NCBI GenBank assembly: GCA_905331295.1
Contig: CAJNYD010000459.1
Span: 186,001-250,000 of the forward strand
DNA from: Rotaria socialis
Taxonomy: Eukaryota
DNA: 64,000 nucleotides
Direction of reading: 5' to 3'
The notes under the pieces are model-generated. The model saw only the letters and a list, made by a program, of their open reading frames with translations, had not been told where the DNA came from and made no database searches. The position numbers and the translations under genes are program-made. Shown here in pieces: positions 7,669-58,100 of the stretch; position 1 is the first letter of the stretch; the number at the start of each line of letters is the position of its first letter.

Positions 7669-8070
7669 TCTCCATGTAATAAAAACCGCATGAAAATCGG
7701 CGGTTAACCACGGTTTTACCGGTCCGGTTACCGGCTCTCATTACCGCAGAACGGATAAATACCGCGGTTTACCACAAAAAATGATCAGGAATTTACACCA
7801 GTACTCNACCGCCGGTTTTGATTAATACCGCGGTTACCGCTAAAAAAGCGGTTAACCGGTTCATCTATAATTTTTGACAGAAAAAGTCTTCCAAATCATC
7901 AATTAAACTATTTTAAAGATCCTTTTTTTTACTTTTACACGTGATAAACATGCGCAAAAAACCGCCGGTTTACCGCGGTTTTACTGGTCCGGTTACCGGC
8001 TCCCATTACCACAGAACGGATAAATACCGCGGTTTACCGCAAAAATTGATCCAGTATTTGCAACATGGGT
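7669..8070. mobile_element. MITE-like element with an internal ~80-bp direct duplication and many ACCGCGGT/GGTTAACC palindromes
   Basis: CGGTTTTACYGGTCCGGTTACCGGCTCYCATTACCRCAGAACGGATAAATACCGCGGTTTACC occurs at ~7711 and ~7976. The ends CTCCATGTAATAAA and TTTGCAACATGGGT are imperfect inverted repeats. Contains one N (7807). Confidence 0.6.
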
Positions 8071-9667
8071 CACTATTACTTTTTGACTATTAGGTCCAGT
8101 CAAACTGTCGAAAAAAACATTCAACAAGGAACTTTTATTAATGATCTCGAAAACAATCGAAGAATAGTTAGTCATATTTCCTCTAATAACAAATGTCTGT
8201 TGATCAGGAAAAAATACTGAAAAATAAAAAAAACATTTTGTTCTATTTTAGCTGATTTTATTAAGCAGAGCTTCTATAATTGAAGAACAAACTAAAATAA
8301 GCTCAACTAGATATGTTTCTCTTTAACAATTCATTTAATTATTTTTGAAAGAGATTCTTCTGTGTAATGAACAGTCAATATCCCGTAGATCTTCCTTCTG
8401 TTTATTGTATTTGCCGTTATAAAGGCATTCGATGACGGTAGATATTGATGTAATCCCTTGTCATTGTGTACGAGACATATTCAAGTTAGGACATGTTTAT
8501 CATGTTGTATACACGTGCCACTATCTTTCAATATTCATCGCAAAAAGGTTATCACTTCTTTAATGAGGAGAAAACAAATGGACACTCACAATGCATTCTT
8601 ACAATCGATCATATCATAGAATTGTCTACATTGATATGTTGTGTGGATCATTTCTGAGGAAACAACTTCTTCACCGATATTCTCTCAAGAACTTATTTCA
8701 CCAGAGTAAACATCAATACGATGAACATAAACAATTATTTCAAAGAAGCTCTTTTAATAATCAATAAAAAACAGAAAACAACAAACGAACATAATCAAGA
8801 GCTTGAGAAAAAAGAAATGGTTAATAAGATAAAAATTGTCCAAAAACAATGACAACCGGTCTAAAAATACAAAAGAATATATTGAATTTGATAGAAATCT
8901 AAAAAAACATACCATGATCATGTTAATGAATAAATTTTCGATACATTAGTTCTTCAACTTCATCGCCTTCCATTGAAGTGGACATAATATCGCTATCATC
9001 AGTTTTTTTCGGACCATCACGATCACTTTCGAGGCATCATTTTTTAATTAAATGTTGAATTTGCTCAATTAATTTGTCATTAATGAGATTTATGATTGAT
9101 GGATCTTCATTATCTCTGTATATCCACTTAGTATAAGCTTTGCCATGGGTTGCATCAGATGAATAAAAATAACGATGATATTTTTTATTTAATGCATCAA
9201 TGTAAGATGAACATAGTAAACAAGGTATTTTCGAAATACTTATTTCAACTAGATTCAAATGATCTGCCTGATTGATGTTATTTTTTAATAAATAATCTAT
9301 AAGTAAGATTTCGGCACGTAGGTGGCCAACATAAATAGGTTTTTCGTCAATCATTTTCAATTTTCCTAAGTATTGCTTATAAAAAGTATCACTTGTAGTC
9401 TGTTGAAGAATTTCGAGATATTTTGATCTGATGAATGAATTAGATTTGTGAAAATGTTTTCAAATGCTTGTCGTGAAGTAACATTCAATTGGTGTGTTTG
9501 TTCAATTGGTGGAGCGAGTTTCCATGAGATATTTTTATATATTTGACCAAAATGCTCCTTATTATTAGACAAACATTTCAAAACAAGATTTTCTGACCGT
9601 AAATGAGCCGATGCCTTTTCAAAATAATGAACACCTTTATCAGCTGTTTTCACCGAATGATTAAGTA

Positions 9668-9898: not shown

Positions 9899-10318
9899 TA
9901 TATATCGAAAAAAGCGTGATTGAAAAAGCATCGTGGCACGCTGTGCTGCTAAAATCAACTGTTGATCAGTTGGATTAACTTAATTTCCAAATATTTGATC
10001 ACGAGCTACTAAAAATTCATTAAGGCTTCTCAATAGAAATTTCATATAATCTTCTTCGGTGTCATTTTTTGATATTAGAAAGATTTTGTCAGTCATTAAT
10101 GGATAATTTCTGTAATATTCTTTATTGGATTGAAGTTCTTCAATAAAATGATACTTTTCATGTGTATTCCATCGAACCATTTTAATTAATCCATGAATGA
10201 CTTTAGAATTTCGACCAGCAAAATAATTGATGATTTTCTTCGAATTATATTCAAATATAATAGAATCCAATTGATCTCTAGCTTCTTCTATTGCTTTGTC
10301 TTTGATTGAAGACATATA

Positions 10319-10471
10319 TGTCAAACTTGAAAGTTGAATTCAATTGAATATTGAAATTTTCAACTTTTAAACCAATAGCATGCCGAAGAATCGTGACTCC
10401 CACCTTTATCACTATGAGTTGAAAGTTGAAATTTTCTATTTTCAACTGAATTCAAGTTTCAAGTTTGACAC
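10319..10471. mobile_element. MITE, ~153 bp, with ~30-bp TIRs
   Basis: TGTCAAACTTGAAAGTTGAATTCAATTGAA ... TTCAACTGAATTCAAGTTTCAAGTTTGACA, with TA on or next to both flanks. It interrupts the deaminase coding sequence. Confidence 0.85.
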
Positions 10472-10531
10472 TACTGATTAAACATAATCTGATATAAATC
10501 CGAATTTAACGAAAAAATCGATTGAAATATT

Positions 10532-10831
10532 TCCAGATCGCCTAATCCGACGACGGATCCTAAAACATTCTACTAACCGAGGAAATCCAGTTGGATTCTG
10601 GGTTTCGGAACTATTGACGGATCCGATGGAAGGATTTTAAAAAATATCAAAATTCTATTTAGTGCAAAAAAAGCTTTTTAGAGGCTGACTATAGCAGGCT
10701 TTTTGACGCATCGGATCCCAGAGTAGGATACGATCGGATAGTATCGGACTCCGAAGCCCGGAATCCGACGAAATCTGTTGGTTCTTCTCAGTTTTCATGT
10801 GAGATCCGATTGTAGGAATGAACGACCTGGG
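10532..10831. mobile_element. MITE, ~300 bp, CCCAGGTCG-type termini, interior rich in GGATCC/ATCCGA motifs
   Basis: Left end TCCAGATCG, right end CGACCTGGG. The host protein reads ...ITATDEQ before the element and YFNRFF after it. Confidence 0.85.
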
Positions 10832-11623
10832 CTGTTCATCAGTTGCTGTGATTGGTTCATTCCGAGCAATAAATATAACATGATCAGCTTCAGAAACATA
10901 AACAGCTGTACATGTTGCACTTCCATTTAGAAAAAAAACAAAACTAGAAAGAAATTTTGATCTGTCTGTCACATCTGTTGTTCGTATTTTTTCTTGAGAC
11001 CCAGATAAACCGTAAGATAAACATTCATAAAGGAGAATCTTACTAAGAATAAAATCACTCATTTCAAACCTAAAAAAGATTTCAATGTCTAATTTGAAGA
11101 CGAAGGTTAGAATTGTGAAAATTTTTCATAACTTCTTCACAAATATATATCAAGATTGATCTAAAATAAATTTTATTTAAACAGAGAAATGTTTGATTCG
11201 ACAAAGGAATCAATCAGCAGTGTGTCTTCTTTAATAAATAAAAAGAATTGTATATCATATCATACCTTCCTTTGTAAGAAGCCATCGATGGTCTCCATTT
11301 CTTTTTTTCCTCTTTGAACATGTCACGACCTCTATTGGTATGCCTAATAAAAAAACACGCAGAGATGGGGCATGATTAATGTAATAGCCTTACGTGTACT
11401 GAGCTGCAATCGTTTCAATTCGCCTAGTAACTTTTTTTTTATGCAATTTTTTTCTTTTTCATTTTTCTGAGAGAGCGTCATCATGCTTTCTGTTCTGTTT
11501 AATGGCCTGCTTGTCACTATGTGCCATTGTTAAACAGTATGTTTTTATTTTATTTTGACTCATTCTTCTCTACGTCTCTTTTTTTACATTTGAAAAGCTT
11601 TAACAAAGTACGATTTACGTTCA

Positions 11624-35062: not shown

Positions 35063-35228
35063 GACGAGATGGCCGAGCGGTTAAGGCGTTAGACTGCTAA
35101 TCTAATGGGCTCTGCCCGCGTGAGAAATTTCATTCAATTATTACACATGCTCTTTTATCAAATGGTAATTTGAATTTTATTTTAAATGTCATATTTGACT
35201 CATTCCTGTTCAAATCTCACTCTCGTCG
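35063..35228 (+). tRNA. tRNA-Ser(GCT) interrupted by an 84-nt insert (35125-35208) between the 5' T-stem strand and the T-loop
   Basis: Acceptor stem GACGAGA/TCTCGTC; A-box TGGCCGAGCGGTTAAGGC; anticodon arm TTAGA-CTGCTAA-TCTAA (GCT at 35096-35098); long variable arm GGGC-TCT-GCCC; T-stem GTGAG (35120-35124)/CTCAC (35216-35220); T-loop TTCAAAT (35209-35215); discriminator G. Confidence 0.92.
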
Positions 35229-35233
35229 CCATG

Positions 35234-35238
35234 TTTTT
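35234..35238 (+). terminator. Putative RNA polymerase III oligo-T terminator of the tRNA gene
   Basis: TTTTT a few bases after the tRNA 3' end. Confidence 0.55.
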
Positions 35239-37747: not shown

Positions 37748-38241
37748 TAGGGTGTGGGTGTTGATGTTCTGGACACACCCACACCCAGACCCTCAGGTTT
37801 TCAATACCACGGTTAACTGCGTTTTTTTCTACGAATTTTTTTTCGTGGGTAACATACCCTTCACCGTAGAATAGAAAACCCTTTTCAAGAAAGGATATAT
37901 TAGTATACCCTTGGGCATAGACTAAGAAATCCTTTTCATGAAAGTGCATATTAATATACCCTTCACCATAGAATAAAAAACCCCTTTTCATGAAAAGATA
38001 GAACAATAAACCCTTTTTTGCTACTCATAAACCCTTTTTATTTTCAAATACCCTTTTCCTCAGAAACCCTTTTACACTAAAACCCTTAAAGGGTTTGACG
38101 AACCCGAATAAACCTTTTAAGGGTTTAGGAAGACTTTCCAAATGTACTAGGGTTTATTGTTCTACGAATTTGTTTTACAGTGCAGTATTACTGGTGACCA
38201 GTATTACCAGCACCCAGTATACTGGTACGGATGAACCCCTA
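37748..38241. mobile_element. Cluster of MITE-like fragments including three 51-bp tandem units
   Basis: Hairpin GGGTGTGGGTG...CACCCACACCC; units starting ATACCCTT at 37854, 37905 and 37956; TCTACGAATTT repeated at ~37829 and 38161; CCAGTAT/ACTGG mini-repeats at 38183-38228. Confidence 0.6.
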
Positions 38242-55108: not shown

Positions 55109-58100
55109 TTAATCAACAAGTCGTGATAATAATGTTTGTCGACGACGGCTCCTATTAAAAAATAAAAACGTCGAACTAATCAAATACTAAATAAAAACCA
55201 ATGACATACGAGCACGCTAAATCTAATTCAGCATCAATTAATAAGGGAAAACCAATGTATAAACGCCATATTTGTTGAGCAAGTAATGTAAAATGTTGTG
55301 ATAAATCAACATTGGAACTTCCGATTGGTGTTACCGACGCATTGATAATATCAGACAACAGCGATCGTTCCAATATCTAGAATAATAATAAAAAATAATG
55401 GATTATTCGATGATCTGTAAAATTCATATTGCATCTACATGAAATATAATGATTGTTCTATGCAACTCTATCAAGCAAATATTTTACTATTTTGCTATTA
55501 GTATTAATAATACTAATATATGTATATATATATATTTTTTTTTTTTGTTTTATTATTCATTGATTTATTAGTATTTATTTACATTTACAATTTTTTTATT
55601 ATTTTACAAACGTTTCGAAGGCGTCAGCTTTCTGCGTCAGTGTGTTTAAAACAGAACAAATAGAATAATGATGCGACAAGTGTGTGATGCTATATGTTTT
55701 TTCTTTTTCCTCTTCTTCTTATGATACTGGTACGGAAGAAGATACAATATAACCTATCTCGTCCAGTTTACCGTCTTGTTCATTCTTCCGTACCAGTATC
55801 ATAAGAAGAAGAAGAAAAAGAAAAAAAATATAGCATCACACACTCGTCGCATCATTATTCTATTTGTTCTGTTTTAAACACACTGACGCAGAAAGCTGAC
55901 GCCTTCGAAACGTTTGTAAAATAATAAAAAAATTGTAAATGTAAATAAATACTAATAAATCAATAAATAATAAAACAAAATATAATTTTTAAATTATTGT
56001 GGAAGAGTAGCAAAAACGAAACAAAATTATAGTGACCTTCCAATTAACCACAAAACAATATATATATATATATTATTCGAAGGAAGTCATTACTTATTAT
56101 TGACATATTTACGACTAATAGTTGAGTTTTTACTTGATCGAATGATAATTAGAGCTAGATCTAATAATTTACATAAGTGATTCTTGTTCTCAAACAAATC
56201 TTCGTAACTAAAAAAGAACTCTGTTATTCGGCATGTTCCTTCTATGTTGTGTGTTCACATCACGGTACTATTAGTTAAATAATGATTGTGAAAAAGTCAA
56301 TCGCGCAGCCATTTGACTCAAATCATCCAACAGATATCATGTAGGCAACGTTTTACCATACATGTGTTTTTAAGGTTAAGGATTATGTACTAAGAAACAC
56401 AAGTCATTGAATGGGAGAAACCAATACGTAACTCATCACATCGCAAGATAGAATTATTCTCGCTTATTAATGACTACATATCTTTCATCTGTCCTATTTT
56501 TATTAAGGTTCTATAGATTATGAAAAAAAATTTCTATCGATAATTCTTACTTTAATATTTTCACTATTAGCTCTTGTTCGTTCATTTGTCTTATTGCCAT
56601 TGATTGGTAATAAAAGTTTTAATAAGACGATTGATCTTGCTTGAGGATAATTTGCCGGCATAAAAATATGAGCATATAATGTTATTTTATTATTATCATC
56701 TGTGGATAACGATTGAAATTTACATTCGTATATTGATGTTGTTATACGATCAATTAAATTTTCATTAATTAGTGTTTGTATTTGTTGATATTTATTAACA
56801 TCGTCGAAAGATATTTCGCGCCATGAACGTAATATGGTCGTATTAGTTATTGAACGACGTAATGATGAATTAAGAATACTTGTTGTTTCGTTACCTTCAG
56901 CTAGTAATGGCATTTCATGTTTTTCTAAATTAACAAGTATTCGATCAAGTGCAATGCGTGCACGCATACGTTGTGTTAAGCGCTTGATTATTTCTGAACA
57001 GTCCGTTACAAGTTCTTGACGTTGTAATGGGACCATTTGACATTTGCATAATTGCTGAACCCAATGATATGGATAACCACCAATTGCATCAGAAAATATT
57101 GGTGCTGATTTTCTGGAAGAAGGAAATGATTAAATATATAATTTAGTTGTTTGCTGTTATGTCATCGCTTTCTTCTTACCCTAGTTGTTGAAAAAGAAAA
57201 TCAGCTGTTGGATTAGGTGATAATTGACCATTATCATTATCATCAAGTAAATTATGTAAAAATGTTGATATTAACGTTTGACTAAAATATTTTAGCGAAA
57301 TTTTCTATGATATATTTTAAATCATTAGTTTTTCTTTACTATACCTTTGTTGGGCTTTGAGACCTGATAATTTTCCTTGAACAGTAACTATATTTAATTG
57401 AGATAAATATGAAAATGTCAATTCTCCTGTATGATCAGCTAAAATAAAAATTAAAAAAACATGTTAGCTAACAGAGTATCAATTGATAAAAAATTACGAG
57501 AAATTATTAATGTAACTTTCACATGTAATGGATGTGGACGTAATAAAAATTGATATTGTTGATCACTATTTGTATTTATACCATCCGAATTAGTATCATT
57601 AGTTGTTGATGAATCCTCTTTTGAATCGATTTGACATGTTATATGACGACCTATGAGTAGAATGATACTTTATTCTTGGAAATTTTTATTCTCGAAGAAA
57701 CTTTCATGAAACAGAACAATAGTTTGCAAATAGTATAGAAAATTTTTATTGCACTTCAACAAAATTATAATTATATGAATTGCAAAGATATGTGTAATTA
57801 CTAAATGTATAAAAATGGACGCCGTGGAAAAAGCACATTGAAACATCAGAGGAAAAGAATATCGATAAAACTGAAACTTTGTTTTCCTATAGAAAGCTGT
57901 TCACACTTAATTTGAATCTAACGATTATCTATTTTTTTTTCTCTAGCAAATTGTTAAGATTAACTAAGAAAAATTCAACAGGATTTAAACAGTTCAAAAA
58001 ATAGCGTATAAACTTTGATGAAAAATACAAATAGTTGAGAAACTACGAAATAGTGGATTATTGCTTATGACGCTTTCAGAAACTGGAAAAATTCCCTTCG

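Follow-up and report, generated by a model that had tools for sequence, protein, structure and literature searches.

An AT-rich insert in the T arm of a Rotaria socialis tRNA-Ser(GCT) gene as a candidate tRNA-targeting mobile element of bdelloid rotifers

Dada is the animal family on record for insertion inside tRNA genes; its members are DNA elements that occupy one fixed site of multicopy tRNA or snRNA genes, and one variant, Dada-tS, targets tRNA-Ser (PMC3706591; PMC8869645). Sub-terminal repeats are documented in PMC3706591 for DNA transposons that target tRNA genes. In bdelloid rotifers, DNA transposons have been described as active, with recent and polymorphic insertions (PMC7943196), and an IS5-like element of bacterial origin has been recorded in a bdelloid (PMC10045372). 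As for tRNA introns, the heterotetrameric TSEN enzyme is reported to remove only those at position 37/38, and archaeal-type enzymes use a local bulge-helix-bulge (BHB) motif (PMC10485636); position 53/54 is described as a natural intron position in the tRNA-Ile(UAU) of the red alga Cyanidioschyzon merolae (PMC9602550). Regarding transcription by RNA polymerase III (Pol III), four consecutive T residues (T4) suffice for termination in mammals and yeast terminators usually have T6-T7, with some read-through even at T5, according to PMC3141230.

The split gene and its insert

The window, that is, the whole stretch of 64,000 nucleotides of Rotaria socialis DNA that was analysed, contains at 35063-35228 (+) one match to Rfam RF00005 (model positions 1-71, 38.3 bits, gathering score 29), in whose alignment the T-loop measures 91 nt instead of 7 nt. 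When positions 35125-35208 are removed, ARAGORN calls a tRNA-Ser(gct) with fully paired acceptor (7-bp), D, anticodon, variable (4-bp) and T (5-bp) stems. A preliminary description of this DNA had proposed a tRNA-Ser(GCT) gene split by an insert at these positions and followed by a T5 terminator, and the proposal was confirmed by Rfam, ARAGORN and the sequence itself. Two of its further statements were also borne out: the insert lies at about 53/54 with a 1-nt ambiguity arising from a shared G, as only shifts of -1 and 0 among the nine registers tested give an identical mature tRNA (52/53 or 53/54), and the gene is missed by a standard tRNA finder, plain ARAGORN reporting 0 tRNA genes in the untouched 64-kb window. 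At a lowered threshold, the same program imposed a 75-nt anticodon-loop intron on the split gene, a call that is wrong, and made nine more weak calls in the window, none with Rfam support.

The 5' part of the gene (35063-35124, +; tRNA positions 1-53, delimited by Rfam and ARAGORN) comprises the 5' strand of the acceptor, the D arm with the A box, the anticodon arm with GCT, the variable arm and the 5' strand of the T stem, and it has zero differences over the aligned bases from seven of the 12 related genes described below. The 3' part (35209-35228, +; positions 54-73, delimited by ARAGORN and comparison with the related genes) is followed at 35229-35238 (+) by a genomic CCA (35229-35231) and the T5 terminator (35234-35238), both placed by sequence comparison. 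The B box of the window copy stays intact thanks to the final G of the insert. Position 57 (35212) is A in this copy and G in all 12 related genes, seven of which differ from the window exons at that position only, and the T5 terminator is the shortest among the 13 copies; the A57, unique among these copies, and the short terminator may be species variation or the first traces of decay. CCA is encoded directly after the discriminator base in 13/13 bdelloid Ser(GCT) genes (the window copy and those of loci L001-L011). A DNA-encoded CCA is unusual in eukaryotic nuclear tRNA genes.

The tRNA gene is intergenic and lies about 390 nt from the stop codon of a convergent carboxylesterase gene, upstream of which a tandem repeat with three copies of approximately 51 nt occupies 37850-38015. 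A TPR protein encoded in the window agrees with an origin from a bdelloid of the genus Rotaria or a very close one: the ten Atlas clusters listed for it are mostly rotiferan, and its best database relative, with 99% identity, is a Rotaria socialis protein, ahead of further proteins of Rotaria and Adineta. Several other features of the window were recorded. A long palindrome at 55538-55985, with 210-nt arms that are 96% complementary and a 28-nt loop, may represent a fold-back element or a source of hairpin RNA; a 152-nt MITE-like element with 52-nt inverted arms (88%) lies at 10319-10470; and a pair of 108-nt direct repeats (87%) at 7693-8065 is accompanied, at 7754, 7820 and 8019, by palindromic units that are shorter and have a GC core. 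A frame at 9037-9459 (-) has an OTT_1508-like deaminase domain (PF14441, E 8.8e-11), and uncharacterised frames at 9980-11125 adjoin it.

The insert (35125-35208, no strand assigned; located by Rfam and ARAGORN, and akin to a second insert in locus L010) has 84 nt and a G+C content of 23%, and an equivalent placement at 35124-35207, corresponding to 52/53, exists because one G is common to both junctions. A left sub-terminal arm of 12 bp (35134-35145, +) begins 9 nt inside the insert, at the same offset as in L010, and a right arm of 12 bp, inverted to the left one (35187-35198, -; identified by arm comparison with L010), stops 10 nt short of the insert end, the shared G being one of these 10 nt, so that counting this G as target gives a symmetric layout of 9 nt, arm, spacer, arm and 9 nt. 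Complementarity between the two arms is imperfect, with 10/12 positions in the window and 8/12 in L010. Between the arms, the alignment of both inserts revealed a conserved middle block (35151-35162, +), consisting of a T-rich run (T4 in the window versus T7 in L010) and then an incomplete copy of the motif seen in the arms, followed in the window by two more T4 runs (35175-35178 and 35180-35183, together 35175-35183, +), where the corresponding part of L010 has T6.

The joint inverted arm match amounts to 18/24 at offsets 9 and 10, and 5 of 1,000 shuffles reach it with all 441 offsets allowed; the score of the four arms taken together, which also contains the homology between the two inserts, is reached by 0/1,000 shuffles. 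Counted from the right end of the insert, all ten bases at positions 11-20 are identical between the window and L010, and the outermost bases are weakly kept (6/10 on the left, 4/10 on the right). Target duplication is absent beyond one G in the window, the junction ambiguity being 1 nt in the window and 2 nt in L010. The earlier statement that the insert shows no real target-site duplication is consistent with this, whereas the statement that it shows no TIRs is correct for the very ends and has to be supplemented for the interior, given the imperfect sub-terminal pair at 35134-35145 and 35187-35198. By eye, the right arm (35187-35197) is, in inverted form, also similar to the T-loop/T-stem of its own gene at 35210-35220 (9/11 in the window, 8/11 in L010), and its outer base covaries, across these two sequences, with tRNA position 65 (G/C in the window, A/T in L010); a hairpin of the right arm with the T-loop/T-stem is weak in RNA models.

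A second insert and its empty counterparts

A scan of metagenome contigs for exact occurrences of a 31-nt segment from the 5' half gave 12 matches in 11 loci (L001-L011). Any gene that departs from this segment escapes the scan, and the contigs covered are short; moreover, several of the 11 loci are related to one another, so the matches amount to fewer than 12 independent cases. Of the 12 related Ser(GCT) genes, 11 have no interruption, and one, in L010, carries an AT-rich insert of 88 nt at exactly the same base as the window insert and in the same orientation. Anchored at their ends and compared without gaps, the two inserts agree at 31/50 bases, a value that 0/20,000 dinucleotide shuffles reach, and their global alignment score is reached by 19/5,000 shuffles and by 0/11,580 window tiles; the agreement clusters in the left arm, the T-rich middle block and the right inverted arm. 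Judged from these sequence comparisons, the two inserts are homologous. Two checks suggested in the preliminary description, for a conserved position with diverged insert sequence and for uninterrupted Ser(GCT) genes, have been run with positive outcomes, the former in L010 and the latter in the 11 intact metagenome genes.

L010 is tied indirectly to bdelloids through L005: the downstream genes of the two loci share 39% identity, and the single database match of the L005 gene is a Didymodactylos carnosus protein. The upstream protein of L010 itself matched only four proteins, none of them named. At approximately 755-845 of L010, a small element that has inverted ends lies either within the gene that follows the tRNA or directly against it. 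Another locus, L009, holds two Ser(GCT) copies (190-271 and 2055-2136), 1.9 kb apart, with three variable-arm changes in common that are absent from the other 11 copies; these shared changes can be taken as a sign of homogenisation between tRNA paralogs.

The closest counterpart of L010 is L004, which is 97% identical to it (688 identical and 22 mismatched flanking bases, 4 gaps) and has identical exons, including the same five exon variants, without the insert. Two more distant loci, L011, which has the upstream gene in common with L010, and L005, which has the downstream gene in common, are also empty. Because all three lack the insert, it is the derived state in L010 and most simply a gain there. 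Orthology of the window and L010 loci was rejected on account of their unrelated flanks: when the two sets of flanks were compared by tblastx, no match had an E value below 0.008, and neither flank profiles nor a profile of the upstream protein hit anything near 35 kb of the window. The sole weak flank signal, between the region upstream of the window gene and L011 (z 3.3), is reached by 12/318 window tiles. At the level of sequence, the unrelated flanks of the window and L010 point to two insertions. That related inserts occupy the same base of two genes that are not orthologous implies either targeting or carriage along with the exons. That the window insert is an assembly artefact, or a chance insertion without specificity, is hardly credible and largely refuted, because an independent contig from an independent assembly carries a related insert at the same base.

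Searches for relatives beyond these loci were also carried out. Using nhmmer, neither further insert copies nor an autonomous partner were found in the window and L001-L011, a search space of about 84 kb that is too little to mean much. The exon pattern had 0 matches in viral contigs and 0 in prokaryote genomes. A motif combining the right arm and the B box had 8 matches in viral contigs and 30 in prokaryote genomes, and these were attributed to chance, as there was no tRNA in 38/38 by ARAGORN or in the 28/28 scanned by Rfam, and no match to the insert profile. The insert compared with phage and plasmid records gave no match over 80% of the query, with best E values of 0.02 and 0.05.

Splicing, transcription and competing explanations

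We favour, with a probability of about 0.55, the reading that the insert is a DNA element which is non-autonomous and specific for both site and orientation, and which inactivates redundant tRNA genes rather than being spliced from their transcripts. The observations that support it are the same base struck twice, the homology of the inserts, the arms at fixed offsets, the empty near-identical locus, the unrelated flanks and the internal T runs. The insert, represented by two copies, is real, recurrent and apparently undescribed. As an element, it would be inserted by a recombinase or transposase into tRNA-Ser(GCT) genes of bdelloids, always in the same orientation at position 53/54 of the T arm, and would produce no real duplication of the target. 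The sub-terminal arms, which do not pair in RNA models, would be protein-binding sites on the DNA, the partner enzyme would read its target as the T-arm sequence around the B box, and an autonomous partner with the same ends may exist or have existed. The element would survive because Ser(GCT) genes are multicopy and their loss tolerated; the interrupted genes are probably dispensable, since 11/12 related genes are uninterrupted. As the insert ends in G and leaves the B box whole, TFIIIC would still bind, and a truncated RNA ending in the insert T runs would be expected, with apparent certainty in L010 and only probably in the window.

The T runs of the two inserts differ in length. Among the related genes, terminators of T6-T10 follow 12/12 (three being cut by contig ends), and the window insert has three T4 runs as its longest, versus T7 and T6 in L010. 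Because the T7 and T6 are as long as the terminators of these genes, L010 very likely yields no full-length precursor. Read-through of the window insert is possible, with only T4 runs to pass; however, the absence of T5 there is no sign of selection, because 123/360 equally T-rich window tiles also lack it. Concerning splicing signals, a 4-bp central helix between two 3-nt bulges was present in 0/5 equivalent registers of the two precursors, the best register having 3 of 4 bp and no flanking helices, no equivalent register has GT-AG ends on either strand, and none ends in AG. These results agree with the earlier account, in which a strict BHB could not be built and the insert was said not to be GT-AG. 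The insert position, 52/53 or 53/54, is not the canonical 37/38. In RNA models, no fold common to the window and L010 precursors was found, the pairing probability of the left and right arms was 0.0 in both, and that of the T stem was 0.76 in the window and 0.0 in L010. The earlier account had left the choice between a spliced gene and a recent inactivating insertion; the insertion is favoured, but as a non-random event, given the same base in L010, and the spliced gene is disfavoured by the empty L004, L005 and L011, by the T7 and T6 of L010 and by the missing BHB.

The least unlikely of the alternatives, though a doubtful one, is a true non-canonical tRNA intron at 53/54 in Rotaria, cut by an enzyme that reads the conserved arms and differs from standard animal TSEN, in which case the L010 allele would be defunct or decaying and L004 would have lost its intron precisely. 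The same position with diverged yet related inserts, the almost unchanged exons, the runs of only T4 in the window insert against the T5-T10 terminators of bdelloid Ser(GCT) genes, the cloverleaf with T stem that forms in the window precursor model and the precedent of C. merolae (PMC9602550) would all fit an intron, but set against them are the lack of a 4-bp BHB helix and of GT-AG ends in every register, the restriction of heterotetrameric TSEN to 37/38 (PMC10485636), precursors without a common fold and, in L010, without a T stem, the T7 and T6 in the L010 insert despite intact exons, the unremarkable absence of T5 from the window insert and the predominance of uninterrupted genes. If it were an intron, the rule that restricts the introns of animal nuclear tRNA genes to 37/38 would no longer hold. 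Several of these points also count against the preferred mobile element: the window exons are nearly undecayed, with one change, G57A, that is compatible with function; the T runs of the window insert do not exceed T4, and the T stem still forms in its precursor model; and 53/54 is a natural intron site in C. merolae. Further points against it are that only two copies are known, that the terminal 9-10 nt are weakly conserved, unlike the ends of most DDE transposons, and that the homogenisation in L009 makes passive spread by gene conversion possible. A mobile non-canonical intron, which would have entered position 53/54 by an IS1111-like, duplication-free insertion (possibly RNA-guided and foreign) and whose Rotaria copy would be read through by Pol III and removed in a way that does not involve standard TSEN, would be the first in an animal, and we consider it quite unlikely.

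Passive spread would involve one old Ser(GCT) insertion carried between paralogs by duplication or gene conversion during DNA repair, with no dedicated enzyme, and would account for the identical site without targeting; the homogenised paralogs within contig L009 and the weakly conserved insert ends are compatible with it, and it is nevertheless unlikely, as conservation sits in symmetric arms at fixed offsets, which is not expected of neutral DNA, and conversion from the commoner intact copies would presumably sooner remove a non-functional 84-nt insert. We regard as very unlikely that the inserts are footprints (joined ends) of a larger site-specific element, excised or deleted independently in each lineage, or filler at a site-specific nuclease break. 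Both copies are indeed similar in length, and apart from a pair of end-like arms with a T-rich spacer they contain hardly anything. Yet the 84-nt and 88-nt sequences can be aligned over their whole length, middle block included, and a single family of mini-elements is a likelier source of this than two independent deletions. Whether mobile element or intron, genes interrupted in this way are invisible to standard tRNA finders and probably under-counted.

Comparison with known systems

A literature search in which few subscription journals were covered returned no description of a T-arm insert in nuclear tRNA genes of rotifers or other animals, and such an insert may sit in Repbase or in supplements as an unclassified repeat. 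The word tRNA is absent from the main text of the bdelloid transposon survey PMC7943196, and PMC4033280 and bioRxiv 10.64898/2026.10.13.758758, in the portions available, have no bearing on rotifers. An ordinary MITE was rejected as a description of the insert, as the repeats are sub-terminal, there is no duplication, and no further copy is present in about 84 kb, a span with low power for copy number. The Spy transposons of the PHIS superfamily (PMC4482050) are likewise eukaryotic DNA elements without target duplication; however, they are described as inserting within AAATTT and as having terminal inverted repeats, in contrast to the tRNA T arm and the sub-terminal repeats seen here.

The non-canonical tRNA introns of archaea and C. 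merolae, as described in PMC9602550 and PMC10485636, resemble the insert in the exact 53/54 position (C. merolae), in the intact exons and in being missed by standard finders, and removal of the insert restores a canonical tRNA. Unlike these introns, it has no BHB, contains internal Pol III terminators in L010 and is present or absent between near-identical loci. In the IS1111 group of the IS110 family (PMC11187229, PMC11208160, PMC12288879), sub-terminal repeats of 11-13 bp, no added target bases, one site and one orientation are reported, and MITE-like derivatives exist; the inserts compare well in their 12-bp arms (10/12 and 8/12 complementary), the lack of duplication and the same orientation in 2/2 cases. 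The extensions outside the repeats do not correspond, being 7 (or 6) and 3 bp in IS1111 and 9 and 9-10 nt here. The group is described as prokaryotic. Nothing is encoded in the 84 nt of the insert, in or near which no DEDD recombinase or bridge/seek RNA is apparent, and the likeness is anatomical only.

Like Dada, both inserts have short inverted repeats that are sub-terminal and none that are terminal (PMC3706591), and the fixed site in a multicopy small RNA gene is found here as well, with 2/2 inserts at the same base. Non-autonomous Dada derivatives are described as using the same site as complete elements, and Dada repeats resemble the target, to which the likeness of the right arm to the inverted T-loop/T-stem would correspond (PMC3706591; PMC8869645). 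However, Dada duplicates 6-7 bp of its target and at most 1 nt is shared in the window and 2 nt in L010, so that membership was rejected for want of this duplication. In addition, the Dada tRNA sites described are nucleotides 8-13 or the anticodon arm and not T-arm 53/54, complete Dada elements measure 4.7-11 kb (PMC3706591; PMC8869645) compared with 84-88 nt, and in a described non-autonomous family 231 bp and 1567 bp of end sequence are retained, against 84-88 nt in all. If the inserts do belong to a mobile element, bdelloids would have a tRNA-targeting element unmatched by Dada both in the place where it inserts, the T arm at the B box, and in its junctions, which show sub-terminal arms and lack a duplication. 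Its autonomous partner would then be a candidate for a new site-specific integrase in animals, and the 84-88-nt ends together with the empty and filled pair L004/L010 make the search for this partner direct.
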